Source: Nitrososphaeria archaeon (GTDB lineage Archaea; Thermoproteota; Nitrososphaeria; JACIWG01). Taken from it: a DNA stretch of 64,000 nucleotides. The position numbers were made by a program, and so were the translations under genes. This document shows positions 33 to 41,455 of this stretch, in pieces. The stretch's first letter is position 1, and each line of letters opens with the position of its first letter. The stretch lies in NCBI GenBank assembly GCA_963752255.1, contig CAVVXT010000010.1, positions 110,217 through 174,216 of the forward strand, read 5' to 3'. The notes beneath the pieces were generated by a model that was not told the DNA's origin, searched no databases, and was given only the letters and a program-made list of their open reading frames with translations.

Positions 33-602
33 GTGGGAAATGCCTTACAAGAAAATCACATGGAAGATCTTCTTTCGAGAATTGGAGAGCAGGTGAACTA
101 CATGAATAAAATAATCTCAGACCTACAAGATTATTCAAAGCCCCTAAAACCAAACCTTGTCGAGACCAATTTGTTGGATTTAATCAACGACACCGTCTCT
201 AATATCGCTGTTGCAGAAAATGTTAAGGTTGCAATTAAGACTCCAGAAAATTTCCCTAGAGTTCCAATAGATTCTTCTATGATGAAAAGGGTGTTCGTTA
301 ATCTTGCTAACAATGCTATGCAGGCGATGTCAGAGGGGGGCCAACTGACCTTTGAGTCTTTAATTTCTGATGGGACATTAACAATTAGTGTCCAAGATAC
401 TGGAGTCGGCATACCCGCAGAAAACATGGACAAGTTGTTTCAGCCTTTATTTACAACCAAATCCAAGGGACAAGGATTCGGCCTAGCCGTCTGCAAGCGA
501 ATAGTAGAGGCTCACGGTGGAAGCATTTCCGTAGTAAGTGAATCAGGTAAAGGATCAATATTCACAATTAGGATTCCAATTGGAAAGTTAAAATACTCCT
601 AA
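33..602 (+). CDS. Sensor histidine kinase, C-terminal part (HATPase_c); gene probably begins before the window
   Basis: N box (VFVNLANNAMQAM), G1 (DTGVGI), F box (LFQPLFTTK), G2 (GQGFGL). Confidence 0.9.
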   Translation: MGNALQENHMEDLLSRIGEQVNYMNKIISDLQDYSKPLKPNLVETNLLDLINDTVSNIAVAENVKVAIKTPENFPRVPIDSSMMKRVFVNLANNAMQAMSEGGQLTFESLISDGTLTISVQDTGVGIPAENMDKLFQPLFTTKSKGQGFGLAVCKRIVEAHGGSISVVSESGKGSIFTIRIPIGKLKYS

Positions 603-603
603 A

Positions 604-1092
604 GTGATTAGAATAGTGTTAAAGAGAAGATCAAGAATGGTGGGATTTGAAAATTCAAAAATCCTAATTGTAGATGACGATAGGGACATTTTACGAAGTT
701 TAAAGGAGATTCTGCAGTCAAAAGGATACGAAATAGACATGGCAGAGACGGGCCAGAGTGCAGTTGAAAAAGCCAAGGCAAAATACTTCAACTTAGCTTT
801 ACTAGATATTAAACTACCAGACATCGAGGGCACAGATCTGCTCGCAAAGATTCATAAGGCTAAACCTGAAATGATGAAGATAATGATAACAGGTTATCCA
901 TCGTTGGATAACGCCGTTAAAGCGCTCAATCTTGGAGCAGACGCGTATATAATGAAGCCGGTTAATCCGGAAAACCTACTCAAAGTTGTTGAAGAAAAAC
1001 TGAAGGCGCAGAAGGAAGCAGAAGGTATGACAGAAGAAAAGATTGCGGAATGGATTGAAAATCGCATTCAGAAGCTTGAGCAAAAGAAGTAA
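604..1092 (+). CDS. Response regulator (receiver domain)
   Basis: ILIVDDD, LLDIKLPD phosphoacceptor, MITG, YIMKP; directly follows the kinase. Confidence 0.92.
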   Translation: MIRIVLKRRSRMVGFENSKILIVDDDRDILRSLKEILQSKGYEIDMAETGQSAVEKAKAKYFNLALLDIKLPDIEGTDLLAKIHKAKPEMMKIMITGYPSLDNAVKALNLGADAYIMKPVNPENLLKVVEEKLKAQKEAEGMTEEKIAEWIENRIQKLEQKK

Positions 1093-1177
1093 GTGTGAAG
1101 AATCAATAACAAATATCGACAAGAAATAAACCACATATATTATTTTTTATGGAATAAAGAAAGATTTAATTGAGTAA

Positions 1178-1600
1178 GTGTTATCGTCGAGCTCAATGGC
1201 CATTATTTCCTATCCGCATGTAACTTGGCAATGTCAGCGATGTGGAAAATGCTGCAAGGATCATGGAGAAAGAAAAAGGCGGATACTGTTAACAGACCAT
1301 GATATGGAACGTATAAAAGAAGCTTTTATTGGAGAGAGATTCTGCACAATCATTAAGAATAATGGCCCATACAAGTATCAGATGATACTGGAAAATGGTT
1401 CATGCATCTTTCTATCTAGGAATAGGTGTACAATCTATAATAGAAGACCTCTAATCTGCAGGTTCTATCCCTTCTCAATGGTAGAAGATGGAGGTTACAT
1501 ATTCGAGGTAGATGCGGACTGTCCAGGTGTCGGTCTTGGTAAATGTGCCACAAAAAAAGTTTTTACTAAGCTTGTAGAGGAGGCCAAGGAATTACTGTAA
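1178..1600 (+). CDS. YkgJ-family cysteine-cluster (CxxCxxCC) protein
   Basis: CQRCGKCC, CIFL, CTIYNRRPLICRFYPF, CPG. Confidence 0.88.
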   Translation: MLSSSSMAIISYPHVTWQCQRCGKCCKDHGERKRRILLTDHDMERIKEAFIGERFCTIIKNNGPYKYQMILENGSCIFLSRNRCTIYNRRPLICRFYPFSMVEDGGYIFEVDADCPGVGLGKCATKKVFTKLVEEAKELL

Positions 1601-1870
1601 CAGTTTAAGAGGACAGATAAAAAGAAAGGGGCTAAATATCATTGTGGCTTTTATAGTAGTTAGAACTCAGAGAAGAAGAACATCTATAACTTCTAGCTAA
1701 ATCAGCTTTCTTCCTGAACAATGTTGCAATATCGTCGTAGGGAAAAACATTTATCAACAGTACCAATTATAAGCATACAGTAATATGGCCAATACCAACG
1801 GAGCTGCAGCTACAACACCAAACACTCAGAAGCTAAACTAGAGAATTAAAACAGTATAGGGTTCGTTTGA

Positions 1871-2557
1871 TCAGGAATCCTCACTTGCTTGATAGGGTCT
1901 TTCATATAACCTATCCTCCACAGCATTTTCCTTTGCAGCCTTTTTCCATGCGGTGTCTCCGAACCAGGTGAACATCAGTGGGGATACCAGTGGCCTCTTC
2001 ATCAGTTTTATTGCCTCATCAGGTAATGGTTTATCTTCGTAAATTGCGTTTGCGACAATTTCCAAAGCTTTTCTAACACTACCACCTATTCTTCCTAGGT
2101 CTTCAAGGTTTATTCCTCCAATCGCCCCACCACCTCCTAAAGCAAGACCTCCGATCCATTCAATTTTTGTTTCAGAAGCAAACTTCCTACAGATAGCATG
2201 AGCAGTCTCGCTCTGGCTTGCTTCTGGAAAACCGCTATTTGATAACGAAAGTATCTTCTGTTTTTTGGGCTCTTTTTGCAGCGAACGGTGTTTAAAAATC
2301 AGTTCTAACAGAGCAATGACTTGAGATGGAAGGTTGTCCACGTACAACGGAAACGTAAGTATCAAAAGATCAGCATCATCAATAGATTGAAGTATGTGAA
2401 CGGCATCTTTATCGGTTTTCATGGCATCATAAATGTAGATCTTATCGCTTACAAAACCTTGTTTCTCTAATTTTTTTATGAGATAGTCCCCTAAGGCATT
2501 TGATGTGCTAGCGTAACTTTTTGGGCTTCCTATAAGAACTATTACATGTTTAGACAT
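1871..2557 (-). CDS. NAD(P)H-dependent FMN reductase / flavodoxin-like protein
   Basis: LIGSPK..STS, TFPLYVDNLPS, NSGFPE. Confidence 0.8.
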   Translation of the reverse strand: MSKHVIVLIGSPKSYASTSNALGDYLIKKLEKQGFVSDKIYIYDAMKTDKDAVHILQSIDDADLLILTFPLYVDNLPSQVIALLELIFKHRSLQKEPKKQKILSLSNSGFPEASQSETAHAICRKFASETKIEWIGGLALGGGGAIGGINLEDLGRIGGSVRKALEIVANAIYEDKPLPDEAIKLMKRPLVSPLMFTWFGDTAWKKAAKENAVEDRLYERPYQASEDS

Positions 2558-3186
2558 TTTTGATCAATAACCTCTGCTATAGCTTCAGCAACTTTTTTGT
2601 ATACGTCTTCTGGGGCGTCGTTAGGATAGACGACTCTTGCTGAATATTTTTCGCTGTAGAAGTTTATGGAATTGCGCTCGATCAACTTTTTGAATATCGT
2701 TTCACTTTCTTGGTCAGGACTTGGAAGGAAACCTATTCCAACCATTTTCGGATATTTCTCATATCGCGCACTATGGTGTATTTCGCCTCCAATTTTCGTA
2801 TAAAAGGGTAGGATGTTTGGTAGCATACGTTCAAGAGCTTTCTTCAACCATGGCGAATATCCTCCAAAAACGACAGGAGAAAGCAGGATAACTAGGTCAC
2901 TTTGAACATTTTCCTTTGCAATAGAGCGTCCTATATCATCTATTACGCACACACCCGGCGTCTTTTTCCAACAATCAAAACAGCCAAAGCAACTTGATAT
3001 ATTTTGATCTCGAAGAATTAATGCTTTGATTTGGTAATTTCTTTCCTTTAGAATATCCTGGATCTTGTCCATTATGCAAGCTGATATAAAATCCCCTTTT
3101 CTGGACCCATCCAGGATTAAAGCCTTCATATAATCATCATTCGATAGCACTGGTTCAACTTTTACATGACTAGATAAACTTTTCAC
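2542..3186 (-). CDS. Flavodoxin-family / iron-sulfur flavoprotein-like protein
   Basis: LDGSR, CFGCFDCW...PGVC, SPVVFGGYS. Confidence 0.8.
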   Translation of the reverse strand: MKSLSSHVKVEPVLSNDDYMKALILDGSRKGDFISACIMDKIQDILKERNYQIKALILRDQNISSCFGCFDCWKKTPGVCVIDDIGRSIAKENVQSDLVILLSPVVFGGYSPWLKKALERMLPNILPFYTKIGGEIHHSARYEKYPKMVGIGFLPSPDQESETIFKKLIERNSINFYSEKYSARVVYPNDAPEDVYKKVAEAIAEVIDQKCLNM

Positions 3187-3866
3187 AAAATAGCAAGAAG
3201 CTCTTTAAGACTGTTGACCTTATAATCCGGAATCTCAAAATCGTTTATAGGATTGAGGTTGACCATAACACCTTGCTTTACCCTTATAGTCCTGAAACCT
3301 AGTAGCTTAGATGGCCCCATGTCGATATCAAGTCTGTCACCGATCATTGTCGAATCTTCAGGACTACATTTCGCCATCTTCAATGCCAGCTGGAATATCC
3401 TTGTATCCGGTTTCCTCAGCTTAACCTGCTCAGATAAGACTATGACACTAAAATATTCTGCGAGCCCAAAAGAGTTTATCCTTTGCCTCGTGCCCACTGG
3501 TTGGTTAGCTATTATACCTAACTTGTACTTTTTACTTAGCTCAGAAACCGTTTTTAGAGCGTCAGAATAAGGCTCCATTTTTTCCAGATACCTTTTCAAA
3601 GCATATTTTTTATATCGTTCAACAATTTTTAGCATAATTTTCTTATCACTCGAAAAGTGTTCGGTGAGCGTTTTTGCAAGCCCAAAATATGCTGCGCCGC
3701 CAAACCTTCTCTCTTCAATTATCTTCTTTAAAGTTTCATCAAAATCTTCATGAGTGATCTTAGCTCCTGAACGCTCAATCATTTCATAAACGTATCCAAA
3801 CAGGTACTTGTCAAATGCCTCCTCATTAACAAGAGTTGACCCAATATCGAAGAACAGCCATTTCAT
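3183..3866 (-). CDS. HAD-superfamily hydrolase
   Basis: FFDIGSTL, IIANQ, RKPD, MIGDRLDID. Confidence 0.88.
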   Translation of the reverse strand: MKWLFFDIGSTLVNEEAFDKYLFGYVYEMIERSGAKITHEDFDETLKKIIEERRFGGAAYFGLAKTLTEHFSSDKKIMLKIVERYKKYALKRYLEKMEPYSDALKTVSELSKKYKLGIIANQPVGTRQRINSFGLAEYFSVIVLSEQVKLRKPDTRIFQLALKMAKCSPEDSTMIGDRLDIDMGPSKLLGFRTIRVKQGVMVNLNPINDFEIPDYKVNSLKELLAIL

Positions 3867-19398: not shown

Positions 19399-20508
19399 TC
19401 ACCGCATCAATTCGTTTAAGATTACGTGAGCATCGGAAGACCTTGTGAACTGAGATATCTTTTTCCAGATCCCCCTCTTGGACGCTACCACCTTGAACTG
19501 GAACTCCTGTGTCGATTTCTCATTCGTATCTACGCGGCCAAGCCTGTCCGCGTCCATTAACCCGAAAGGATATCCGGGGAAACTTACGTCTCTAGAGTTA
19601 TCCGCCATGGCGGAAATGATCGACTCAATTTCTTCGAACCTGCTCCCTTCTGCCTGCTCCCTCAATATTTCAAACCTGAAAACATGCTCGGACTGCCTAT
19701 GCAGTTTAACTGCAAACATGTCAGCTCTGTGGTCAGGATGTGCTATTTTAACGATCGGATGATAGTACCAGGAAGACCCCTTTAGTAATGTGCTCTGGGA
19801 GAGTTCCCATATTGCTGAGAGCAGCGGCTGTCCGGTCGTTGTAAAAAGTGTAGATGTCTTGGATAAGGCGGTGAAATAGACCTCCTCGTTTAACGCCGTG
19901 TCGTATGCTTCATTCGCATACTTACTTTCGTTTGTGACAGATGTCTGTAGAGTTCCGTCCTTTACGAGTATATCGTTTCTATTGAGCTCTTCCTGCATTA
20001 TAAAGTTTGTAAATTTCCATTCAGCGAATGTACGTGCCGCGTTAGAGACCCTATCTATCGCAGCCCTCTGAAGCCCCGACATTATAGTCCTATCGAAGGA
20101 ATTGAACTTCAGGTCTTCAACTTCAGGCAAATATTTCCTCCATATTTCTTTTATCGGAACGAACTCCGTCCTGTAAACTATCTTCTTATCTTCCAACGTC
20201 GCATAGCATACCGTATAAAAATCAATCTTTTGAGGAACATTACACGGTTCAATTCTCCTGTTTCCTTTGAATAGGTTGAAATATAACCTTGTCAGTTCTA
20301 TTATGAAATTAGGTGCACTAGCTATTTCCATATTACCTCCGTCGATGAAACAGATTGTCCGTTCCGCATCGCTTTTAGGGATTGCATGAAAGTTAGCAGT
20401 ATCGAAATCGCTCGAATGATATCTCCTGTCAGCGAAAGTCGGTTGGCCTAGGGGAATGGGAATTACATTCTTTTCGAGCAATTGAACAGCCAAATCAATC
20501 GGTAACAT
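19399..20508 (-). CDS. NurA-like nuclease (RNase H fold)
   Basis: FIDGG, ILVKDGTL, ALSKTS, GYPFGLMDAD. Confidence 0.75.
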   Translation of the reverse strand: MLPIDLAVQLLEKNVIPIPLGQPTFADRRYHSSDFDTANFHAIPKSDAERTICFIDGGNMEIASAPNFIIELTRLYFNLFKGNRRIEPCNVPQKIDFYTVCYATLEDKKIVYRTEFVPIKEIWRKYLPEVEDLKFNSFDRTIMSGLQRAAIDRVSNAARTFAEWKFTNFIMQEELNRNDILVKDGTLQTSVTNESKYANEAYDTALNEEVYFTALSKTSTLFTTTGQPLLSAIWELSQSTLLKGSSWYYHPIVKIAHPDHRADMFAVKLHRQSEHVFRFEILREQAEGSRFEEIESIISAMADNSRDVSFPGYPFGLMDADRLGRVDTNEKSTQEFQFKVVASKRGIWKKISQFTRSSDAHVILNELMR

Positions 20509-21073: not shown

Positions 21074-21547
21074 TCAATCGTATTTGTTAAAGATATATTC
21101 CAATGTGATGTTGCAGTTCTCTCTTATGATTTGCTCTGATTTACCCTCAAGGGAAATTCTTTGAGAAAATAGTAATTTTATTTCTATGGGAGAAATGTAA
21201 CCAGATAAAACTACTGGATAGAAATTGAAACCAATTAAGGAATTCTGATTTAGGAAATCCCTAATTGAATCACATACGTTTTTTATTTTTTGAACTGCAT
21301 CCAAAATTGGGGCATCACCTTTTTTTAATTCAACAATCACAATTTTCTTTTTTTCTAAAAAACAGCAGAGAATCAAGCAGTCACTTACCTTCCCTGGTTT
21401 GTGTTTTTGAACCCAATATTTTTCAACATTTATGATAATTTTTTGGTTTACACCTCTTCCGATCTTCATTGAGCAACCTTGATCTTTACATTTAGATGTA
21501 ACATAAGGTCTGGCTGAATTACAAAGATCTGTTAAAGCCCAAGACAT
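21074..21547 (-). CDS. Small PD-(D/E)XK-like protein, partner of the ABC-type ATPase
   Basis: SDCLIL...IVIVELK motif; starts 10 bp after the ATPase stop. Confidence 0.55.
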   Translation of the reverse strand: MSWALTDLCNSARPYVTSKCKDQGCSMKIGRGVNQKIIINVEKYWVQKHKPGKVSDCLILCCFLEKKKIVIVELKKGDAPILDAVQKIKNVCDSIRDFLNQNSLIGFNFYPVVLSGYISPIEIKLLFSQRISLEGKSEQIIRENCNITLEYIFNKYD

Positions 21548-21556
21548 ACTACTACA

Positions 21557-23086
21557 CTATCGTTGTTGTAGTGCTCTATCAATTTTGACCGATTCACCAT
21601 AAAGTTCTGTGATAACCTCGTTAAACCCAGAATCCTTCGTTGATGTATCACGAATATCTATTTTTTTGACTATGCTTTTGCCAGGTTCAGTTTGTGTAAA
21701 GAGATAGATTCCAACATATTCAGATTTTATTTGATCCAAAACACCGTATCCCAGTTCTTTTCGTTTTTTCTCAGAAACTTCTGATAATTTAACAAAATTC
21801 TGAATTTGTTGCAATAGGTAATCACTATGGGTTGTCATAATCAGTTTCACTCCTCCATTTGCAAGCCTTACAAGGATTCTTGTAAGTCTTCTTTGAGCAT
21901 CTGGATGTAAATGGGACTCTGGTTCTTCCATGAAAAGAGTTGAGTCAGGTCTTAAAATATACTTTAAGTATAGGATTAAGGGTGCTACTTCTGAGACCAT
22001 TGAAGATGCTCGGTGAAGAGGAAATTTAGCATTTTTTGAATAGTAGAAAATCTCTGGATAATTAGATTTCTCTGTCTCCTTTACATCAACTCTACCCATA
22101 GTGACTTCTTCTTCAATTAGTTTTGCGAGGTTGGAAAAGCTACCACCACGTCCTGGAAGTCTGATTATGTTAGCAAGAAAATCTGTGATAACACCACTCA
22201 ATGGAAGGAATTCTATTTTTCTAATTCCTATATATGGCATTTCCCTTATTAGTTCTGATGCTACTGTCTTATGCGCTGAAAGGATGCCTGAACGCGCAGC
22301 TGGCAGATAGAAAGAATGTAAATCTATTTTTTGGGGGGATAAAATAGAAGACAAGAATGCATCAAAAATATTTTTGAAGATCGAAAATCTGAAATAGCTC
22401 TTTTCTTTTTCGATTTCCTTTAGAACAGTTGGAGTAATTGAAAACTTGATAACTCCTTTACTTCTCCCTTCAAACCTAATTGAGCTATACCTAGATTTTG
22501 AAAATCTAAAGAGTAGTTTCTCTAAAGGATAAGTTGGAATCAATTGTAAATCGAAGCTTCTGTTTTCACATGTTAAATCAATCTCAAAATTCATAGTCCT
22601 GAAATTAACTTTTAGTGAATTACTACCGTGACTGCATAGATCGAACAAACTACATCCAAAAATTCTTTCTAGCTCTTCGGATAGAATTCGCAAGAATTCT
22701 GTTTTAAAACCATCCATCATAGATTTGTATAGCTCTTGAGTTAAATCTTTTGGTATCTCAAAATTTTCTATCTTATCTTTGTTGGATAAAAGAACTTTAA
22801 TGAAATTGTTCTCGACTTCGATAGGAATTTTCTCATAAAGATTCCTTCTTCTTCCACTATATAACATTCTATTCTCTCTATAGATTTCGGATTCAATAAA
22901 CATCGGCATATATGAAGAATAGAATTTCAGTAACGATTCCTCAAAGGTATGTATCAACATTGCAAAATATGATTTGCCTGTATTATTCTTACCAAGAAGA
23001 ATTGTAAAGGGCTTTATTACTATGGTTCCTTTTTCTATAGGACCAAAGTTCTCTACGGAAACACTAATTTGCTCCATTATTCGCAC
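21557..23086 (-). CDS. AAA_15/AAA_21-type ABC ATPase (defence-associated family)
   Basis: VENFGPI, Walker A GKNNTGKS, YLPAARSG, ASSMVSE, Walker B MEEPESHLHP, TTHS. Confidence 0.88.
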   Translation of the reverse strand: MRIMEQISVSVENFGPIEKGTIVIKPFTILLGKNNTGKSYFAMLIHTFEESLLKFYSSYMPMFIESEIYRENRMLYSGRRRNLYEKIPIEVENNFIKVLLSNKDKIENFEIPKDLTQELYKSMMDGFKTEFLRILSEELERIFGCSLFDLCSHGSNSLKVNFRTMNFEIDLTCENRSFDLQLIPTYPLEKLLFRFSKSRYSSIRFEGRSKGVIKFSITPTVLKEIEKEKSYFRFSIFKNIFDAFLSSILSPQKIDLHSFYLPAARSGILSAHKTVASELIREMPYIGIRKIEFLPLSGVITDFLANIIRLPGRGGSFSNLAKLIEEEVTMGRVDVKETEKSNYPEIFYYSKNAKFPLHRASSMVSEVAPLILYLKYILRPDSTLFMEEPESHLHPDAQRRLTRILVRLANGGVKLIMTTHSDYLLQQIQNFVKLSEVSEKKRKELGYGVLDQIKSEYVGIYLFTQTEPGKSIVKKIDIRDTSTKDSGFNEVITELYGESVKIDRALQQR

Positions 23087-23149: not shown

Positions 23150-23771
23150 TGTTCATATTTAATTTTACTAACAGCTCAATTTTTGTAAGAGCTACATCTA
23201 AACTTGGGGAGGCTGAAGAGATATTTCTTTGCTTTGCTTTTTTAAAAAGATCGAACTCACTAATTCCTTGTAAATTAAGTTCTTCAGTTATATCTTTTTT
23301 GTTTGAAGGCACTACTTTATTATATTCTAATTCAACAAGTCTTGCAATATTTTCTTTGATCTCCTTCTTCTTCCCATTTACAGCTACATATATTGTAGCT
23401 TGATGGGCTCCAACTTATAACTTATATAAAGATTCTTCGCCTTTGATGGCTTTTCTTTCTTCATTTAGCAAAATTCTTTTTACATCAGTTAATAAATCTA
23501 TTTTGATTGTGTCTCTGTCAACAATAAAGAGGAAATTCTGGATTTTATAATAGAGACTTAGGTATGTCTTTATTGCACTCAAAGCTATCATTCCTTTTTT
23601 AGTAGGGAGAGACATTTCAGGAATGAATAGAATTTTTCCCTTTCCATTGTATCTTTTGCTAAGTGCACGGAGAACCTTAAACTTTTTTTTACCATCACTC
23701 GTTAATACACTAATTATCTTTTTCGATTCTGATTTATCTTCAAGTTTATCCAGAATCTCCAATAACATCAC
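23150..23771 (-). pseudogene. Interrupted TOPRIM-like partner protein (left end approximate)
   Basis: FLFIVDRD DxD motif; reading continues in frame after the stop at 23415 (VGAHQATIYVAVNG...). Confidence 0.45.
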
Positions 23772-23776
23772 AGGCT

Positions 23777-24026
23777 TTAGAGCTTTAAAAGGTCCACAAG
23801 TATCCTGGGATCTTGACTTGCATCAAATAGACTTCGCAGGTCGTCAATACTTAGAGTTTTATATTTTAAAACATCATCTTTCCCTTTCTGTAATTGTATA
23901 ACACTTATTTCAGAAAGGGTTGCCTTATTTGAAGTGTCCTCGGTAATATTTAGCAGCGCATTTAATACGTCTATACTATGGGTAGTAATTACAACCTGCC
24001 AATCTTTTGATAAAAGCCCAAAAAGT
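23777..24026 (-). pseudogene. C-terminal remnant of a second ABC/AAA ATPase
   Basis: Frame without a start codon: LLSKDWQVVITTHSIDVL...SQDPRILVDLLKL* (H-loop TTHS). Confidence 0.65.
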
Positions 24027-24187
24027 TAATTTTAGGGCTTGTCCTGTTGCTTCAAGATTGTTCTTACTCATCGCTTTAAATATGTCTAGCATACTGGGGA
24101 AGTTTAATTAGAAGGAAAATAGTTATTTTCTTATTGACACTAAGGATTAATATCGCTACCTTTACAAATATGTATCAACTATTACCA

Positions 24188-25163
24188 ATGGAGTCGGAAT
24201 CGAACGAGAGTAGATAATAATTCGGATTTCAGTCTAGACGAATTTCGAGTATCAGATAGTGAAGTACATGAGCCAGCTATATTTTCTATATCAGTCCTTT
24301 TGTCGAGAACTTCTTTAGTAAAACCTCTTCCTGACGTGAAAGAAGCACTTCTTAAAATCAAGAAAATTATTGAAGAAAAATATTCTTTCGGAAAGCGACA
24401 TCAGAATGAATCTTTTAAGCAAGGTTTTCTTAATTTTAATGTAAAACAAGAGACTCTAGAGTTCTACTATGCTCAAGAGATTCCTCTTAAAATGGATTTT
24501 GTTCCGGAACGCGATGACCCTGAAATAGTAACTAGACATATACGAGCTGTTAATCCTACTCATAAAATTAAGATAAAACTGACCTTAAGCAAACAAAATG
24601 CTGAGGTAATACTGTTTGGAGGGTCCGATATTCTAGTATTAAAAGTCGCAGGATTAGTAAATGAATCAATCAGAGCTTTAGCTGAAGACGGTCACGAGAC
24701 TTACGATTACAGAATTACTAAAGAGGAAATGCTCAAGATTCTAGAGGCATTCCAATCAGATGTTGAGTACATCTATATAGACCCAGGACAAAACGAGAAA
24801 CTTAGAAAGTATATTAAAGAAAAAAGACTAGGAGAAGAAATTTTTGTTCAAGTATATGATGTCCATACACAGTTTAGAGGGTACAAAGTAGTCGGATCAC
24901 CAGTAGTCCAACAGATTCTTAGAGAAACTGGAGTCTATCTCAGAGAAATTCAAGGCAAAATCGACTATGCCGCAGGGATAAGGATTACGAGTAGAGTGTC
25001 TTCCAGTGGCAGGATACTGCTCTATATACCAGAGAATATCTTAGAAGTAGGAGAAGATGTGTACGATATAGCTTTCAACCTTTACAAGAAAGTAATAGCG
25101 AAGAATGTATTAAACAAAAGTCAACCAACAATAGAGTCCTACTTTAATGGTGTAAAGTTATGA
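24188..25163 (+). CDS. Hypothetical protein, first gene of a two-gene module (start probably 24188 via a 1-nt indel)
   Basis: 287-aa ORF from 24300 whose frame is open upstream; its stop overlaps the next start (ATGA). Confidence 0.7.
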
Positions 25164-26539
25164 ATCAAGAAATAAGTGCAGAAACTCTACTTGAAATAAC
25201 TGCCGAAGAAGAATTACTAGACATCAAACGATGTAAGAATCTTATAGGACAAATTTTTGCTGAAAGAAGATATGATTTATTAGATGCTGCTCTTAGAAAA
25301 GTTACTCACGCCTTCTATTTATCTTCCGTTGAGTTTAGAGCATCTTTAGTTTCTTACCTTCTCGAGCAGTCAAAGGGTCTTAACGAAAGGGAGATCAAGA
25401 GGCTTCTTGATAACTCGGTTATAGGCAATCTGACTCTCATACGATACTTGCAAAGTAGGCATCCTGTAGTCGATAGTAATGGTTTAAATGCTCTGGATAT
25501 TCTTTCTGAAGCGAAATATATAAAGGATGCCACAGTCTTAACTCTTTATCCTTTTGAGGAAAAACTAAAGACGGACATAGAAGAGGAGGTTACGGGAATC
25601 TATGATCAGACTACACTGAAGAAATTAACAGAAATATATGAAGTGCTCTTTCTTTTCAATTTAGTTCAGCATAATAGATCCTGTGTTCAGAGTCTCGTCA
25701 ACCTTTACGCATCTATTCAGACGCCAGAATTTAGACTAAAAAATGGTATAGTCAGCTCCATACTTGAGCCAAAGTTAGATATTTTCATTGCCCACATGTC
25801 AAAGTTCATAGTGAACATTAAGGAGGAAACTGATATAATCGAGAATTATGATCTAATATTCGATTCTTTGAGGAATATAGGTATTCCTGTCTTCTTTGAT
25901 ATAATGAAAGTCCGATTTAATGATATGGTTTTCAATGATAACTTTTACTTTCTACTTTTTCAGGATTTAGAGAGTGCTAAAGTTCTCATACCTCCCTACA
26001 AGCAGGCTAAAGCTGAACATGTTCAGAAGATTTATGACCCCATAGTTGGGAAGTTTGTAACTCCTAAGGGGAAATACGGGAAGATACTGATAGAAGATAT
26101 ATTCTCTTTCTCGGAATATGAGAAGGTTCATGATATAACTGAGGAGGAATTAAATACAGTTAGAGAGATGAGGGAGACAGAAATAGAGGCTAAAATTCGC
26201 AACATCCTGAAAGATGAAAACCGTACAGCAGATTCCCCAACGGAAAAAGCGGACATAATAACACTGAAATTAAGGATTAATAATAAAGATGACCTTCGTA
26301 ATGCAGCCTTTATACTTAAAGGTAAAAGCTATCGAAAGGTGACAATAAACTCTGTCGCAACTAATCTACTTAAGGCTACAGAACTACTTGTTGATGTAGT
26401 GTTCCTTGTTTACACTGGAGAACTATTAGATGAACCACTTACTTATTTCATAAAACTTTGTAATCAGAATAAGAAGATGTATTGTGTAATAGATGGTCGT
26501 GACCTTACAAGGTTGTTAAAGGCATACAGACTACTATGA
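25160..26539 (+). CDS. Helical N-terminal domain plus C-terminal restriction-endonuclease-like domain
   Basis: C-terminal E..IE...EKADII...AAFILKG...YCVIDGRDLTRLL. Confidence 0.6.
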   Translation: MNQEISAETLLEITAEEELLDIKRCKNLIGQIFAERRYDLLDAALRKVTHAFYLSSVEFRASLVSYLLEQSKGLNEREIKRLLDNSVIGNLTLIRYLQSRHPVVDSNGLNALDILSEAKYIKDATVLTLYPFEEKLKTDIEEEVTGIYDQTTLKKLTEIYEVLFLFNLVQHNRSCVQSLVNLYASIQTPEFRLKNGIVSSILEPKLDIFIAHMSKFIVNIKEETDIIENYDLIFDSLRNIGIPVFFDIMKVRFNDMVFNDNFYFLLFQDLESAKVLIPPYKQAKAEHVQKIYDPIVGKFVTPKGKYGKILIEDIFSFSEYEKVHDITEEELNTVREMRETEIEAKIRNILKDENRTADSPTEKADIITLKLRINNKDDLRNAAFILKGKSYRKVTINSVATNLLKATELLVDVVFLVYTGELLDEPLTYFIKLCNQNKKMYCVIDGRDLTRLLKAYRLL

Positions 26540-27127: not shown

Positions 27128-27220
27128 ATGATGCCTGAGGAAAAAGCAAGAACAAGAATTGACCCAATCCTTAAGGCTGATGGATGGATAGTTCGGGTTA
27201 TGAATGGTTTGAGGAAATAA
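27128..27220 (+). pseudogene. 30-codon N-terminal relic of a different HsdR
   Basis: MMPEEKARTRIDPILKADGWIV parallels the HsdR start SEYRTRREKIDVQLRKSGWDV. Confidence 0.55.
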
Positions 27221-27222
27221 CT

Positions 27223-30037
27223 ATGGTAAAAACATCCGAGTATAGAACACGTAGGGAGAAGATAGACGTTCAATTAAGGAAGTCAGGTTGGGACGTCGAT
27301 GACCGATCAAAAGTTATTCAAGAGGTTGATACTAAACAGTCAGACTTCAAGGCTGGTAACTACAAAACCATTGATCAGACTCTGAAAAATCCAGAAGAAA
27401 AAGCATATGCAGATTATCTCCTTCTCGATTCTAATGGTTTGCCTTTGGCTATTATCGAAGCTAAACGAACGGACAGGGATTATCTTTCAGGGCAAAAACA
27501 AGCTGAAGATTATGTTAACGATATCAAGAAGCAGACAGGAAAGGATATTTTCATTTTCTTAACTAACGGATATGAGGTATGGTTTTGGAATAAACCGTTC
27601 GAGGCACCTAGAGCCGTTAGTGGGTTCCATGATAGGCGTTCCCTTGAACGCATTAGATTTCAGAATTACTCAAGGAAGGACTTCTCTGACGTTCCCATCA
27701 GCAAAGAGATTATCGATAGACCTTATCAAATCGAATCGGTAAAAAAAGTGCTGGAAGGAATAGAGAAAGGCAAAAGGAAATTTCTTATCGTTCAAGCAAC
27801 GGGTACAGGAAAGACTCGTGTTGCAATGGCTCTTATCGATGTTCTTCTAAGAGCTAATCGTGCCCAAAGGATTCTCTTTCTCGCTGACAGAAAGGAGCTA
27901 AGAGACCAAGCATACGGTGACAACGGGTTTAAAACATTCTTCCCTCAAGAGTCTAAAGTCAAAGTATTCTCTGGACAAGTTGACAAGACCTCTCGCCTCT
28001 ATGCTTCAACAATACAAACCTTCATGGAATGTTATCAAGAATTCTCCCCAGGCGATTTCGACGTAGTTATTTCAGATGAAGCTCACCGCTCTATCTACAA
28101 CAAATGGAAGGAGGTCTTTACTTATTTTGATGCGATTGAAATTGGACTTACAGCTACTCCATCTGACTTAATTGAGCGTGACACGTTCAGATTTTTTAAC
28201 TGTGAGGATAGTATTCCAACCTACCTTTACACTTATGAAGAGGCGGTTAAGGATGGGTGGCTCTGCAGACTACAAAGTATATGTTGCTCAAACTCGTTTT
28301 CAGATTGAAGGCATTCGGCCTAGCGACGTTCCTGACACAATAAAGAAGAAGTTGCTTGAAGAGAAAGGAATAAGTGAAGAAGAGATTAACTTTGAAGGGA
28401 CAGACATAGAGAAAAAAGTTGCTGTGTTAGGAACTAACGAAGCTATAGTAAAAGAGTTTATGGAAAAATGTCTAACGGATGCAACTGGAACACTACCAGC
28501 TAAAACTATTATTTTCGCTGTTTCACAGAAGCACGCAACAAGATTGTGGGAAGCCTTCGAAAAACTCTATCCAGAATACAAAGGTCGTCTGGCAAGGCGT
28601 ATAGTGTCAGAAGATTCAAGAGCAGACGAACTTCTCAAAGAATTCAAGACCGAAAGCTTGCCCCGCGTCGCTATTTCCGTTGGCATGTTAGATACAGGAG
28701 TGGACATACCAGAAGCATGTAATTTGGTCTTTGCTAAACCAGTGTTTTCAAAAATAAGATTTTGGCAGATGATAGGAAGAGGAACGAGACACGACAGAAT
28801 ATGTAAGCATAGGGATTGGCTGCCATATGAAAAAAAGGAGTATTTTCTGATTTTCGATTTCTGGAATAACTTCGACTGGCATAACATGCATCCAGAGGGT
28901 AAAGAGGAAGAACTAAGCGAGGCAGTTCCTACGAAAATCTTCTTAACAAGACTCAAGCAACTAGATTATTTGCTTCTGAAAAGGGATAAACGAGCAGATC
29001 TACTTAAGAAGAAACTTACTGAAGATGTAAAATCGTTACCTTGTGATTCTGTCACAATCAAAGAACATAAACGAGATATTGAGAGAGCTTTAACGCCTAA
29101 CGTATGGGATACAGTGGGGCTAGATGCACCAACGTTCTTAAAAACCAAGATTGCGCCTTTAATGCGTTATCAGAAGGATGTCAACCCAAACGAAGCATCT
29201 TGGACTTTGAAAATTGAACAGTTGAGCTTTGCAATTTTACAAGATAATAAAACCGAGATTGATAGGGTTAAAGATGACATAGGTGAGTGGCTCAATGCCT
29301 TGCCAACGACAATTCGAGAAGTGAAGGATAAACAGGAATTGCTCGACAAAGCATTACGCCCACAATTTTGGAAGAACATAACTTTCGATGACGCCCAGAT
29401 GCTTTTAAAAGAATTCGCATCGTTAATGAAATATAAACAGCCTGAACCGCGACCTATTATTATCCTCGATATTGACGATATTGTCCAACGGAGAGACTTC
29501 ATCGAATATGGCCCAGTTCCAACACAAGAATATGCTATAACTTATATTGACAAGGTTGAGAAAAGAATTAAGCAGCTCATTGAGGAACATCCCACCATTA
29601 AGAAGATTAAACGCGATGAGGTTCTAAATGAGGAAGACCTTAAGAATTTGGAAAAGACTCTAAATAGTCCAGAGCTTTATATTACTGAAGAGGTTTTGCA
29701 GAAAGCCTATGGACAGCACAAAGGGACACTCGTTCAGTTCATCAAGAAAATTTTAGGCCTGTACGAGTTTCCCGATGCAAAGAGGAGGATTCAAGAAGCC
29801 TTCAAGGCCTTCGTTATAGAGAAGAATTATCTTAACTCAGATCAGGTTAATTTCCTTCGTACAATTCAAACTGTGTTTTTAAAGAAGCACCATATTGAGT
29901 ACAGTGACCTGTTTGAGCCGCCATTTACTAACTTCGGTGTTAATGCACCGGTTCCGCTTTTCAATGTGGACGAGCTTAAAGAAGCGATCCAACTATGCAA
30001 CCAATTAGAGGTGGAAGTACTGCATGTTAGCCCCTGA
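27223..30037 (+). CDS. hsdR: Type I restriction enzyme R subunit, EcoAI/EcoEI-like (frameshift near 28260)
   Basis: ADY...IIEAK nuclease, ATGTGKT, DEAHRS, GLTATP, LDTGVD, QMIGRGTR, EcoEI_R_C-like tail. Confidence 0.93.
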
Positions 30038-31508
30038 ATTGAAATCGCAAATCAATAAGCTCTGGGATAGATTTTGGTCCGGAGGGATTGCCAATCCGCT
30101 TACTGCAATCGAGCAGATGTCTTACTTAATTTTTATGAAAAGATTGGAAGACCTAGATAACATCCATGCAAGAAGAGCAGCAGCGAGGAACGAGAAACAC
30201 AAATCACTTTTTGAAGGGCATGAAAATTGTAGGTGGTCACAATGGAAACATCTTAACGCTCAAGCAATGTTGAGACATGTTCAAGAAGTCGTTTTCCCAT
30301 TTATTAAAAACCTGACCAACGGCGATGATGTATTATACTCACAATATATGAGAGATGCTGTATTCGTTATTCCAAAGGCTTCCTTGCTGCAGGAAGCTGT
30401 CGCGATAATTGACGATATGAATATCACAGAACGAAATCAAGACACCCAAGGAGACATCTACGAATATCTGTTAAGTGAGCTAAAGACTGCAGGCAAGAAT
30501 GGACAGTTCAGAACACCAAGACATATCATTCGAATGATGGTTGAACTCATCGAGCCTGATATAGGCCAGACTGTTTGTGATCCTGCCTGCGGTACAGCTG
30601 GTTTTCTGATTGCTGCTTACGAACACATCTTGAGAAAATATACAAGCGATGATATCATAAGTATCCACGAAGATGGCTCAACACACAACTTGGTTGGAGA
30701 CAAAATTGTTGAGAAATCTCATTGGGACCTTTTGAAACGAGAAACATTTTTCGGCTTTGATTTTGACACTACAATGATTCGTATTGGATTAATGAACATG
30801 ATTCTCCACGGTATCGGGAGACCTAACATTCGTTATGCTGACACTCTTTCTAAACGCTTTGAACAAAAGGCACGGTATGATATTGTTTTTGCGAATCCTC
30901 CATTTGCTGGATCAATCGATAAAAGCGACATTAATGATTCTTTTAAATTAGATACAACGAAAACCGAACTTCTGTTTTTGGAACTCTTCTATAATCTTCT
31001 GAAGATCGGAGGTAAAGCTGCAGTTATTGTTCCAAACGGTGTCTTATTTGGTTCATCAAATGCACACATCAAAGCTAGAAAACTTGTGTTGGAGAATTGT
31101 CAACTTGAAGCTGTAATTTCCATGCCTGGAGGTGTTTTCCAGCCCTATTCCGGCGTTGGTACAGCCATTCTTGTTTTTGTAAAGGGAGGTAAGACCGATA
31201 ATGTTTGGTTCTACGAGATGCGACAGGATGGATATACCCTAGATCAGAAACGTGATTTTATTGATGGCGAAGGTGACATTCCTAATATAATTCAGAAGTA
31301 CAAGAAGCGAGAGGAGTCAGGACAAAGCATCTTGGTGCCATTTGAGAAGATAAAACAGAGTGATTACAACCTCTCAATTTCAAGATACAAAAAAGTTGAG
31401 CGCGAGGAAGTTGAATATGAAGACCCTTTAGTTCTAATAGACAATGTTCTAGAAAGTGAGCGTGAAATCGAAAACGATTTAATAACTCTTAAAAAGATGA
31501 TTCAATGA
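30024..31508 (+). CDS. hsdM: Type I R-M m6A methyltransferase
   Basis: GQFRTPRH, DPACGTAGF, ANPPF. Confidence 0.95.
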   Translation: MLAPELKSQINKLWDRFWSGGIANPLTAIEQMSYLIFMKRLEDLDNIHARRAAARNEKHKSLFEGHENCRWSQWKHLNAQAMLRHVQEVVFPFIKNLTNGDDVLYSQYMRDAVFVIPKASLLQEAVAIIDDMNITERNQDTQGDIYEYLLSELKTAGKNGQFRTPRHIIRMMVELIEPDIGQTVCDPACGTAGFLIAAYEHILRKYTSDDIISIHEDGSTHNLVGDKIVEKSHWDLLKRETFFGFDFDTTMIRIGLMNMILHGIGRPNIRYADTLSKRFEQKARYDIVFANPPFAGSIDKSDINDSFKLDTTKTELLFLELFYNLLKIGGKAAVIVPNGVLFGSSNAHIKARKLVLENCQLEAVISMPGGVFQPYSGVGTAILVFVKGGKTDNVWFYEMRQDGYTLDQKRDFIDGEGDIPNIIQKYKKREESGQSILVPFEKIKQSDYNLSISRYKKVEREEVEYEDPLVLIDNVLESEREIENDLITLKKMIQ

Positions 31509-32624
31509 AAATATCGAAACTGGAAGAACTTGCAGATATTCAATACGGATTTCCTTTTAATTCAAAGAAATTTAAGGAAAATGGTAGGATTCGGGTTGTA
31601 AGAATAAGGGATATAAAGAAACCTGAAAAACCTACTTTTTTAGATGATATCTATAGACAAGAATATGTAATTGGAAACGGAGATATTATTGTTGGAATGG
31701 ATGGAGAATTCAATTGTATTATTTGGAATTTTGGAAAAGCTGTCTTGAACCAACGAGTTGCAAAAATTATACCTAAGAACTTTGTTTCCAAGAGTTATCT
31801 CTATTATATTCTTAAAATTAAACTCAAAGAGATAGAACAGAGGGTAACATTTGCTACAGTAAAACATCTACTTGATTCACATCTTCGGAATCTTGAGATA
31901 CCCTTTCCTCCATTAAATGAACAGATACGAATAGCATCCATCCTTGGAAAAATTGATGAGCTGAAAGATAAACGGGAACAAGCAAATTTGATGACTAACA
32001 AAATTCTTCAAGTTATTTTTCTGCAGATGTTTGGAGACGGTAATTTCACACGTGAGCCTATCAGAGAACATATTATAAAGACAGAAGTAAGAGACCCACA
32101 AAAAAAACCTCATGAATACTTCAAATACATCGATATTGCTGGAATTGATAATAAATCTGGAAAAATAGTAAAAGTAAAAACTATACCTAGGGAAAGATGC
32201 TCCAAGCAGAGCAAGAAAAGTAATCAGAAAGGATGACGTGATCATATCAACAGTGAGACCTAATCTAAATGCAACTGCGCTTGTTCCGCCTGAGCTCGAT
32301 AGTCAGATTTGTTCTACTGGGTTTTGCGTTCTTCGTTGTAAGAGCTCATTGAATCCAAGATTCCTATATGTTTTCACAAGAAGAACAGAATTCATCGATG
32401 TTCTATCATCTCAGATGAAAGGAGCTTCCTATCCCGCTGTGACAAACGATGATGTCTTGAATGTTGAAATACCAATTCCCCCTATTGAACTTCAGAATAA
32501 ATTCGTTTCAATTGTTGAAAGAGTCCAAAATATCCAAGAAAAACAGCAGCTATCCACTGGGGAAATTACAGAGTTATTCAATTCTCTCATGTCCAAATCA
32601 TTTAAGGGAGAGTTGGTGTCGTGA
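31505..32624 (+). CDS. hsdS: Type I R-M specificity subunit (frameshift near 32190)
   Basis: Two TRDs with IPFPPLNEQ and IPIPPIELQ; ends LMSKSFKGEL. Confidence 0.9.
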
Positions 32625-32625
32625 G

Positions 32626-33483
32626 ATGCAGTTCCTTTTAAAACCTAATTGGCAACAATTAAACAGATACATCTGGAATTCCCTTGAAAAATCGGCACCA
32701 GCTGACGTATATATTGAATTATATCGCTTTCAAGGAAGAATATTGGGAATTGATTCACGAGCAAATGAGCCCGACGTCACACAAGAAGAAATAGATGCTC
32801 GTAACATGTTTTTAATTATAATAAATGACACAAAACTAGCTAAAAATGAATTCAAAAAGTACAACCCTCCAACTAATGAAGCTATTTGTATCGAGCTATT
32901 GGAGGGATTCTATGGAGTCTTAAAAGACAACTTCGGTACTAAACTGGCAAAGAAATATTATTCAAAATTATCGCAGTTCTTACTCGAACATAATCTAAGA
33001 TACAAACTTGACGCAAATTGCAAGTTTCATTTAACAATTCAAGGCATATTAATGACTCAATATGTACATCTACGTCAGTTTCTTGAAAATAATCCTGAGT
33101 GCTCAGAATGTCTAAGTGAATTAGAAGACATCATTTCTAATTTACATCAGTCACAACAGCAAAGAAATTGTGTACGTGTTTCTAGCAATCTATTAGAAAA
33201 CTTGGTAGTTGCAAAAGCAAATAGAAGAGCTAGTACGCTATCGCGGGCTTTGGAACAATGTCCTGTGGATTTATTTCCACATGATGCAGTACGTGAAAGC
33301 TTAAAGAAGATTTATGATTTTGCATGCGATTATCCAAACATTCGACATGCTGGTAGACCTGAAAGCCGTTTAAGAGACCTCAGAAATGATGACGTGCTTC
33401 TTATCTTATCCTTAACAATAGGTTTCGCATCTTTTCTCTCTAGGGAGAATGTTAGTCAAACAATACTTAGTGGAGATATATGA
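32626..33483 (+). CDS. AbiJ-like / HEPN-like abortive-infection-type protein
   Basis: C-terminal KKIYDFACDYPNIRHAG; begins 2 bp after hsdS. Confidence 0.55.
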   Translation: MQFLLKPNWQQLNRYIWNSLEKSAPADVYIELYRFQGRILGIDSRANEPDVTQEEIDARNMFLIIINDTKLAKNEFKKYNPPTNEAICIELLEGFYGVLKDNFGTKLAKKYYSKLSQFLLEHNLRYKLDANCKFHLTIQGILMTQYVHLRQFLENNPECSECLSELEDIISNLHQSQQQRNCVRVSSNLLENLVVAKANRRASTLSRALEQCPVDLFPHDAVRESLKKIYDFACDYPNIRHAGRPESRLRDLRNDDVLLILSLTIGFASFLSRENVSQTILSGDI

Positions 33484-35744: not shown

Positions 35745-36326
35745 CTAAGCATTAGGGCTTTCTACAGGATATCTAACCAATAGTATTGTTTCTCTCAGAA
35801 TATCGCTTAAGCAGTGTTCCATTATCATCTTCAATAGGTTTTCTGTTCCTCCTGATAAATATGCTTTCCATAGTCCAGGTACGTCCTTTCCGCATATTTT
35901 ATCATCATTGAAATAATCTTCAGGTTCGCTCATCAGATCATCCAATTTAGGCCATTTTAATCCCGATTCTTCTGCCTTCTTTCTCCATGGCTGCATTATA
36001 TCCACAAAATCATCATCAGCCACTTCCATCTTTAGTTCGATTCTGATAACATCTTTTTCAAATCTGGTGTTATATGAGTAGAGTGGTTTGGGAAGTGTTC
36101 TAATCGTTTCTCTTATCTCCCGGTAGAAGGGCTCCTTTTCTTTCGTTTTTCTTTGAACAATAATGAGTTCGTTCAAACGAAAATAACCAAAGGTAATTAC
36201 CTCGTGTTCTCTGTCTCTGTTTGGTATACCTGTGGTCTCGAAATCAATCAAACTCCCTTTGTTTATGCATAGAGCTAGTGATATAGTCGTCTTTATGTGA
36301 TTCTTGTATACTTTTAATCCATTCAT
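35745..36326 (-). CDS. RNase H-like (RNase_H_2 / DEDD) exonuclease-domain protein
   Basis: IDFETTG, YSYNTRFE, HCLSDILRE. Confidence 0.8.
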   Translation of the reverse strand: MNGLKVYKNHIKTTISLALCINKGSLIDFETTGIPNRDREHEVITFGYFRLNELIIVQRKTKEKEPFYREIRETIRTLPKPLYSYNTRFEKDVIRIELKMEVADDDFVDIMQPWRKKAEESGLKWPKLDDLMSEPEDYFNDDKICGKDVPGLWKAYLSGGTENLLKMIMEHCLSDILRETILLVRYPVESPNA

Positions 36327-40666: not shown

Positions 40667-41455
40667 TCAAAATTTATACATACCTTGCCCCAAGAATGTG
40701 ATAACCTTTTGGTCTCTTAAAACTTGTAAACTGGCTGGCGGATCTTGGGGCGGATATGTCTGTTTCTGGGGTGGAGCTTAGCTAATTGGTCCTCAAACGT
40801 GTAGGCCTGATTTAACGTGAATGTCTCTTGATCTAGGCTTTCTTATGCATGCCAGCACATCCGTCATCCATCCCCGTGAAAGGGACGACTGTCCAAGTAG
40901 GAATGAAAATCTTTTCCAAGAATACCTTACCGCATTCTTGGGCATTTCAAACCCATCCCTGATGATATGTATTCGAGCATCTGTTGGCAGTTCTCCGAGG
41001 AGAATGCTGGATCCTACCCAGCCGCTCCGTCTAGCAGATTCCCTGAGGGGTTTCCGTTTTTCTACTACTGATTCCGTCATGAAATATTTTGGAACAAGAA
41101 ACAGGTTCGACACATTAAACAATTTCATGTCGTATTGGAGGAAGAGGTAGCTCGGTGCCGTTCCAGCGCGTATTGCTTTGATCTTCGGTTCATAGGCGGA
41201 GTTCATGATCTGATATCCGTAGGGGTGGCTCTGGCTCTTCAGTTGATATTCTTCCAGACAGTCCGGGCAGACAAAGTCCACTACCTGCCTTCCTGTTGGA
41301 GTGGTAGATAATACATCGGATGCGCACGCTGGGCAGTACAGGTTCTCCTGAACCCAATCTTCGGTGAGAACTCTTGCCCGTTGGGACAGGCTCCTATATG
41401 GCGATGCTATTTCAGGTTTTAGCTCAAGCTTCAATCTGAACTCAGAAAATATCAA
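40667..41455 (-). CDS. dpnI: DpnI-family (Dam-replacing) Gm6ATC-dependent restriction endonuclease (frameshifts in the wH tail)
   Basis: SQRARVLTEDW, CPAC, DFVCPDC.EEYQLKS, RKPL..ARRSGWVG, wH C-terminus. Confidence 0.9.

Follow-up and report, generated by a model that had tools for sequence, protein, structure and literature searches.

A rare two-gene module of a Nitrososphaeria archaeon, comprising a predicted RdgC/RexA-fold protein and a Shedu-related putative nuclease, is a candidate variant of nuclease-based defence

In the nuclease-based Shedu defence systems, N-terminal domains have been described as clamping free DNA ends (Loeff et al.) and as inhibiting the nuclease allosterically, with 79 families of such domains distinguished, 602 genes for Shedu found inside restriction-modification (R-M) systems, and only 47 of 7,687 homologs held by archaea (Gu et al.). 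A two-component form from Escherichia coli, KELShedu, includes a 12.6-kDa DNA-binding partner, KELA (bioRxiv 10.1101/2025.09.13.674623). Separately, RexA, RdgC, IML3, and CHL4 have been described as one DNA-binding fold, with RdgC forming a ring-shaped dimer that binds DNA non-specifically and RexA acting as the DNA-binding member of a pair that excludes phages (PMC11077077). We analyzed a pair of overlapping genes, gene 1 (protein A) and gene 2 (protein B), both on the forward strand of a 64,000-nucleotide stretch of DNA from a Nitrososphaeria archaeon (assembly GCA_963752255.1, contig CAVVXT010000010.1, positions 110,217 to 174,216). This whole stretch is referred to as the window, and positions are numbered within it unless a contig is named. 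An earlier, sequence-only reading had proposed the pair as a sensor or regulator coupled to a nuclease, forming a possibly undescribed anti-virus system. On our results, the pair is best read as a form of nuclease-based defence that has not been described before, tied to Shedu by the N-terminal domain of protein B and equipped with a partner of the predicted RdgC/RexA fold.

The pair was first considered as a unit. Gene 1 (24204..25163; about 319 codons over its homology-supported extent, stop codon TGA at 25161-25163) and gene 2 (25160..26539; 459 residues, ATG start) share the four bases ATGA at 25160-25163, where the TGA of one meets the ATG of the other—an overlap already noted from the letters alone, as was the open reading frame (ORF) of gene 2—and the two genes are translationally coupled. 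Both ORFs have homologs at E-values of 1e-52 to 1e-166, and a word-indexed search of 5.8 billion proteins returned eight relatives of gene 1 in all and two of gene 2, the latter with 49% and 38% identity. A metagenome scan recovered five loci, three of which (L001, L002, and L003) carry a whole or N-terminal gene 2 homolog; directly upstream of it, in three of three, lies a gene 1 homolog (hidden Markov model [HMM] E-values of 1e-141 to 1e-153), with an ATGA overlap in L002 and L003 and a TAATG overlap in L001. The remaining two loci hold the C-terminal domain of protein B only, at the N-termini of different proteins of 453 and 490 residues. Counting the window itself, a homolog of A is found directly upstream of B in all four contexts. 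The co-occurrence that the sequence-only reading had suggested looking for is present, and it extends to a protein, P0096, in which a gene 1 homolog is fused to the N-terminal domain of B.

Relatives were otherwise scarce. When 400 other genomes sampled from the phylum were searched at E ≤ 1e-5, the profile for gene 1 found none and that for gene 2 found one, which matched in the C-terminal domain only; in 40 nearer relatives, the gene 2 profile yielded a single match to a 31-residue stretch (E 1.7e-4). Scans of species-representative genomes returned nothing for gene 1 or for the Shedu-type relatives described below, and a scan of viral contigs gave no match. Neither protein had a tblastn match in phage records; among plasmids there was none for gene 1 and one for gene 2, to a relative of its C-terminal domain annotated as hypothetical. 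Neither protein matches Pfam, NCBIfam, or PADLOC, in agreement with the suggestion that the pair corresponds to no known system, and no description of an RdgC-like protein together with a nuclease as a defence system was found in open-access papers and bioRxiv. The module of two genes is real and conserved, very rare, and sporadically distributed.

The structure of protein B could be modeled with high scores by AlphaFold2 (AF2; mean predicted local distance difference test [pLDDT] 94.3, predicted template modelling score [pTM] 0.85, from a 40-row alignment), and divides into three domains: an alpha-helical N-terminal domain (residues 1-240, 25160..25879), a middle beta domain with conserved NDNFYF and PKGxxGK motifs (residues 241-312, 25880..26095), and a C-terminal domain (residues 313-459, 26096..26536), all on the forward strand. 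In the model, helices occupy residues 1-240, seven short strands follow over residues 250-300, and residues 339-455 form an alpha-beta-beta-alpha-beta-alpha-beta-alpha unit. Protein B had previously been read as about 300 residues of helical sequence followed by a nuclease-like domain; the helical part is real but covers only 240 residues, and the roughly 70-residue beta domain that comes after it makes three domains rather than two. The motifs on which the nuclease call was based are all present in the translation (ETEIE at 339-343, ADII at 364-367, FILKG at 384-388, and YCVIDGRDL at 441-449).

Structural comparison suggested that the call itself was well founded. When the B model was compared with 48,161 chains using VIA-align, 15 of the 50 rows shown matched residues 324-459, and these comprised 13 restriction-endonuclease-fold nucleases and two RNA polymerase subunit E chains (RPB5 N-domain). 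AF1548 (Z 8.5, 109 residues aligned, root-mean-square deviation [rmsd] 3.0) and FokI (Z 8.2, 128 aligned, rmsd 3.9) led the matches, followed by AspBHI (Z 8.1), the two BspD6I subunits (7.6 and 7.2), and MspJI (7.2-7.5); the comparison with the FokI/BspD6I/MspJI/AspBHI group spans Z 7.2-8.5 over 109-129 residues. Cdn1, LlaBIII, NucS, Avs4, EcoT38I, and Hna were also among the fold matches, and a second VIA-align search gave the same picture. Four charged residues—the putative catalytic set E339 (26174-26176), E362 (26243-26245), D365 (26252-26254), and K387 (26318-26320)—did not vary among any of the 115 complete copies of the domain (115/115), with further conservation at F317 (114/115), G388 (112/115), and position 402, which is always Q or N. 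Together, the model comparisons and the invariant residues point to a predicted FokI/Mrr-type nuclease domain of the PD-(D/E)xK fold.

Residues 309-459 alone had no Pfam Mrr_cat (PF04471) match even at E ≤ 5, and P0046, a family member, reached Mrr_cat at E 0.0012 with 19.4 bits, under the cut-off of 21. For gene 2, the ESM Atlas gave only a weak lead (<0.9), to a cluster with 38% Mrr_cat. When PDB sequences were searched with profiles of both proteins, nothing meaningful came up, the best being a 40-residue stretch of PH0006 (E 0.001), and Foldseek of the whole B model against the PDB had no match at E ≤ 0.001, such that VIA-align alone recognized the C-terminal domain. The helical N-terminal domain had only generic solenoid, PCI, and TPR matches in VIA-align, below the level that this tool treats as meaningful.

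The C-terminal domain has a far wider distribution than the pair. A profile search with gene 2 against 1.84 billion cluster representatives returned 279 matches at E ≤ 1e-3, 111 at E ≤ 1e-10, and 31 at E ≤ 1e-30. When domain HMMs were run over 159 stored proteins, 23, including B of the window, displayed the full architecture of N-terminal, middle, and C-terminal domains, and the middle domain was confined to gene 2 family proteins among those scanned; the last ~150 residues of B, on the other hand, were found in about 100 other proteins, at other positions and in other architectures. The commonest placement is at the N-terminus of proteins of about 450 residues annotated as hypothetical (P0046-P0157), and fusion partners include a type IV restriction-like helicase (P0073), an LmuA-like domain (P0043), KaiC (P0089), and TPR. 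One C-domain protein adjoins GmrSD_N and HEPN genes (L004, 2542-3903 of that contig), another, from a Paenibacillus plasmid, has an LA2681-family HEPN gene in its vicinity (L009, 7004-8341), and a further locus carries the C-domain only (L005, 448-1920). In P0085 (567 residues), the domain is N-terminal to a Mu-type transposase (rve plus Mu-transpos_C), an arrangement that recalls the TnsA-like endonuclease partners of transposases. The ~150-residue domain represents an unnamed nuclease family with many fusion partners and deserves a family definition of its own.

The other end of protein B leads to Shedu. Three proteins with the Shedu nuclease domain SduA_C (DUF4263) at their C-terminal end—P0052, P0080, and P0096—share its first ~200 residues, as shown by hhalign probabilities of 98% for B residues 1-200 against the N-termini of P0052 and P0080, by Pfam SduA_C matches in all three, and by PADLOC calls of SduA for P0052 and P0096. 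At E ≤ 0.01, gene 2 itself matched no Pfam family, SduA_C (PF14082) included, and none of the SduA models of PADLOC. In P0096 (701 residues), a homolog of gene 1 spans residues 4-311 (hhalign probability 100%, E 6e-67) and is followed by the N-terminal domain of gene 2 at 320-513 (domain HMM) and SduA_C at 541-665 (also PADLOC SduA, E 2.7e-29). Read-through of two overlapping genes could have produced this protein, but even then a gene 1 homolog stands beside the N-terminal domain of B in a Shedu-type context. These sequence relationships suggest that, in a small clade, a unit of gene 1 plus N-terminal domain has been combined with one or the other of two nuclease modules that are unrelated, and the N-terminal domain of B may be one of the unnamed families counted by Gu et al.

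For protein A, which had been described as alpha/beta without a recognizable motif, an AF2 model (pLDDT 71.8, pTM 0.67, from an alignment of only seven sequences) gave an indication of the fold. RdgC of E. coli (2owl) was the top match in both the VIA and Foldseek searches, with Z 10.5, 230 residues aligned, and rmsd 6.8 over residues 27-303 in the former and E 1.7e-6 at probability 1.00 in the latter. Foldseek probabilities were also 1.00 for CENP-L and Iml3, and 0.99 for lambda RexA (E 1.9e-4). Of the first 16 rows in the BFVD viral library, six were phage proteins named RdgC or recombination-associated, one example being from Serratia phage JS26 (E 3.9e-7). The ESM Atlas offered only weak leads for gene 1 (<0.9), to TBP-containing giant-virus clusters. 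Protein A is thus predicted from its model to adopt the two-domain fold shared by RdgC, Iml3, and lambda RexA, proteins that bind DNA non-specifically; this prediction lends the earlier sensor or regulator idea a basis that it had lacked.

The module is most probably an anti-virus defence system, for which we propose a mechanism. Protein A would bind DNA in the manner of RdgC and RexA, perhaps that of an invader or DNA undergoing replication or recombination, and would contact the N-terminal domain of B, either restraining the nuclease or switching it on; such a contact is suggested because the two always co-occur whatever the nuclease, once as a single chain. The nuclease of B would then cut DNA, probably after two B molecules pair, as in FokI; FokI-type domains carry one active site each. 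A prediction of the complex of A and B scored 0.01, gave no verdict, and was counted neither way. We have high confidence in the anatomy—genes, folds, and domains. For the defence function and the sensor-nuclease mechanism, in which we infer the binding of A to B, DNA sensing, nuclease activity, and the anti-virus role itself, we consider the balance to lie modestly in favor.

Several observations weigh against this reading. For all members of the family, the defence role is predicted from sequences and models. Only four genomic contexts are readable, three of them short metagenome contigs, and the neighbors in L001-L003 give only weak defence signals. Upstream of the pair, L002 encodes a nucleotide-cyclase-like protein (2-1123; Guanylate_cyc, E 3.4e-7) and L003 an 892-residue protein with weak STAND NTPase matches (599-3277). 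The model of A is of moderate confidence, with four other AF2 models at pLDDT 48-57; its template modelling (TM) scores to RdgC are low (0.37-0.41), A has no Pfam match to RdgC (PF04381) at E ≤ 0.01, and a profile search of PDB sequences with A found neither RdgC nor RexA at E ≤ 10. For protein B, the Z values of 6-8.5 fall in the range that VIA-align grades as middling, and weight therefore rests on the consistency of the matches and on the conserved residues. Finally, position 385, two before K387, is hydrophobic (I, V, or L), and the classical (D/E)xK triplet is absent; a glutamate borne on a helix or loop may stand in for the missing acid, a substitution with precedent in other restriction enzymes. 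Two more points, the start of gene 1 and the condition of the neighboring genes, bear on whether the copy in the window is functional.

Gene 1 lacks a canonical start at its homologous N-terminus in the window. The ATG at 24188, previously taken as the start, is out of frame and opens a mini-ORF (24188..24217, forward strand) of nine codons, MESESNESR, that ends at a TAA (24215-24217). The frame of gene 1 is open from 24144 to 25163, and its first canonical in-frame start is a TTG at 24300..24302 (forward strand); starting there would remove 32 conserved N-terminal residues, among them the stretch 'F-S-L-D-x-(L/F)-R-V...P-A' and the invariant columns L11, D12, V16, and P24, all of which lie upstream. 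Full-length homologs of 313-319 residues (P0005-P0008, P0158, and P0159) have alignments that begin at about 24204-24210, and in a DNA alignment the L002 homolog, which is 79% identical, has its ATG opposite the ACG at 24204-24206. On a contig from a related strain, the segment corresponding to 24100-25381 has 48 base differences from the window and no indels. P0004, a 96%-identical gene 1 homolog whose contig has the same length of 1,659 bases and is presumably that one, likewise has its called start downstream. A non-ATG start thus seems to be common to the two strains, presuming identity at 24205 itself. An assembly indel behind the frame problem between 24188 and 24204 is unlikely because the independent related-strain contig is indel-free over this segment, and programmed frameshifting from the ATG at 24188 found no support, the mini-ORF being missing from the region upstream of the L002 homolog in the DNA alignment.

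Since ACG replaces the ATG of gene 1, the copy in the window may be weakly expressed or inactive, and the surroundings could be taken to extend this view. The pair lies between an ATPase gene and ATPase remnants on the left and a type I R-M system on the right, as first described. The ATPase remnants (23415-24025, reverse strand) consist of a C-terminal AAA_21-type piece ('VVITTHS...', 23777..24025) with no N-terminal half upstream. In the R-M system, hsdM (30024..31508) is whole, whereas hsdR is split between two ORFs (27184..28308 and 28172..30037) that overlap, lie in different frames, and match contiguous parts of one PADLOC REase_I profile, and hsdS is split between 31505..32236 and 32238..32624; either decay or single-base assembly errors would account for the splits. 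That the pair is itself a decaying, non-functional remnant—an explanation compatible with any of the functional ones—is nevertheless rather unlikely in our judgment. Both of its reading frames are unbroken across the full homologous length, with all invariant residues retained, and the related strain, despite 48 differences, keeps the frame without an indel, such that the non-ATG start appears to be shared rather than a fresh lesion.

The remainder of the region is also rich in genes of restriction or defence type. Guanine-plus-cytosine content is 31-38% over about 20-40 kb of the window, compared to 40-47% on both flanks, where a phosphate ATP-binding cassette transporter operon (left) and purine biosynthesis genes (right) are found. 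To the left of the pair are a NurA-like gene (19399..20508), about 4 kb away, and the AAA_15/AAA_21 ATPase (509 residues, 21557..23086, reverse strand), whose best PADLOC models are PD-T4-4_A (E 1.2e-41) and also AriA. Within 21074-23086 on the reverse strand, this ATPase is followed by a 157-residue protein without a family match, and the two may form a second two-gene defence module. To the right, beyond hsdS, the region encodes a PDC-S32-like protein (32461-33483, E 2.8e-8), an RNase_H_2 superfamily protein (35745-36326), and a DpnI-like restriction enzyme of the Dam-replacing family (40793-41455, E 5.8e-56). No RNA family or tRNA was found near the pair. The genome assembly comprises 19 contigs and 2.1 Mb at 94.7% completeness. 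It is archaeal: a TATA-binding protein is encoded on the same contig as the pair, and a control search gave signals in the four archaeal controls only.

Given this setting, the pair might instead be a restriction enzyme that works without a methylase, like those of type IV or type IIS, in which the beta or helical domain of B reads DNA or modified bases and A serves as a DNA-binding loader or specificity helper rather than as a sensor of infection. The best folds for the C-terminal domain include the modification-dependent AspBHI and MspJI as well as FokI and BspD6I; the pair adjoins a type I R-M system and contains no methyltransferase, as had been noted; and the C-domain relative P0073 has a type IV restriction-like helicase as its fusion partner. 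However, no base-reading domain of a known kind, such as SRA or PUA, is seen in the B model, and the N-terminal domain is common to Shedu-type proteins, whose N-terminal domains are described as regulatory or as clamps for DNA ends. We regard a restriction enzyme of this kind as improbable.

More doubtful still is a toxin-antitoxin or addiction module belonging to a mobile element, with B a toxic nuclease, A its neutralizer, and maintenance of the island the main role. The tight gene overlap and sporadic distribution would fit such a module, as would the left edge of the pair: on the related-strain contig, the sequence left of ~24100 is unlike that of the window, and because of this difference in a strain whose gene 1 is 96% identical, a rearrangement or cassette boundary is suggested about 100 bases before gene 1, as for a cassette that moves. 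Yet A, at ~315 residues and with a predicted DNA-binding fold, is unlike typical small antitoxins; its homolog forms one polypeptide with the N-terminal domain in P0096, an unusual arrangement if A were a labile antitoxin; and the flanks of the pair have no adjoining integrase and no direct or inverted repeats of note. Least probable of all, and by our estimate very much so, is a housekeeping pair for repair or recombination, composed of an RdgC-like modulator and a structure-specific nuclease: RdgC is recombination-associated (PMC11077077), NucS is among the fold matches, and the NurA-like gene is close by, but neither gene was found whole in the 400 other phylum genomes, the low-GC surroundings are of restriction and defence type, and the nuclease domain is swapped for that of Shedu in relatives.

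Returning to a sensor coupled to a nuclease, we tentatively propose a more general form of this idea, to which we assign somewhat less than even chances: that the RdgC/RexA-type protein is a dedicated infection sensor and the N-terminal domain of B an adaptor, behind which FokI/Mrr-type or DUF4263 nucleases are interchangeable and the parts may be split or fused. If true, some 'single-gene' Shedu systems would be two-component. If the pair works as proposed above, an RdgC/RexA-fold DNA binder would constitute a new type of sensor in nuclease-based immunity. The N-terminal 'regulatory' domain of Shedu could, in that case, act as a docking module for a separate protein, with the nuclease behind it exchangeable. 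The pair would also be an archaeal example of such immunity, in a domain of life where Shedu homologs are scarce.

Comparison with described systems helps to place the pair. DS-21 (TOXO) is a validated three-gene defence system of E. coli with proteins of ~365, 140, and 211 residues, one of which is annotated in the supplement as LmuA-effector PD-(D/E)xK-like (DeWeirdt et al., Science 2026, PMC13092281). Compared by description, it differs from the pair in having three genes instead of two, and the C-terminal domain of B matches no LmuA model in PADLOC. With FokI, BspD6I, MspJI, AspBHI, and Mrr_cat, the C-terminal domain of B has in common the predicted fold. Its conserved acidic/acidic/lysine set is putatively catalytic, with a hydrophobic residue two before the lysine, and the DNA-recognition parts of these restriction enzymes are absent from B. 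Lambda RexA and RdgC have the predicted two-domain DNA-binding fold of A but no sequence similarity to it; in addition, the partner of RexA is RexB, which is not a nuclease, and RdgC is a stand-alone modulator of recombination.

KELShedu is closer in organization, as a two-gene operon in which an upstream protein that binds double-stranded DNA precedes a downstream nuclease and both are reported to be needed for defence. By its description, KELA at 12.6 kDa is smaller than A, at ~36 kDa and with a predicted RdgC-like fold, and KELB carries the DUF4263 domain that B lacks. Shedu itself has the same plan as B, a non-catalytic N-terminal domain followed by a C-terminal nuclease of the PD-(D/E)xK fold; the N-terminal domain is homologous between B and three DUF4263 proteins, and both occur in defence islands, beside R-M systems. 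Protein B differs in having, in place of DUF4263, a beta domain and a predicted FokI/Mrr-type domain, and while Shedu is described as a single-gene system, the pair has a second gene in every one of its four contexts.

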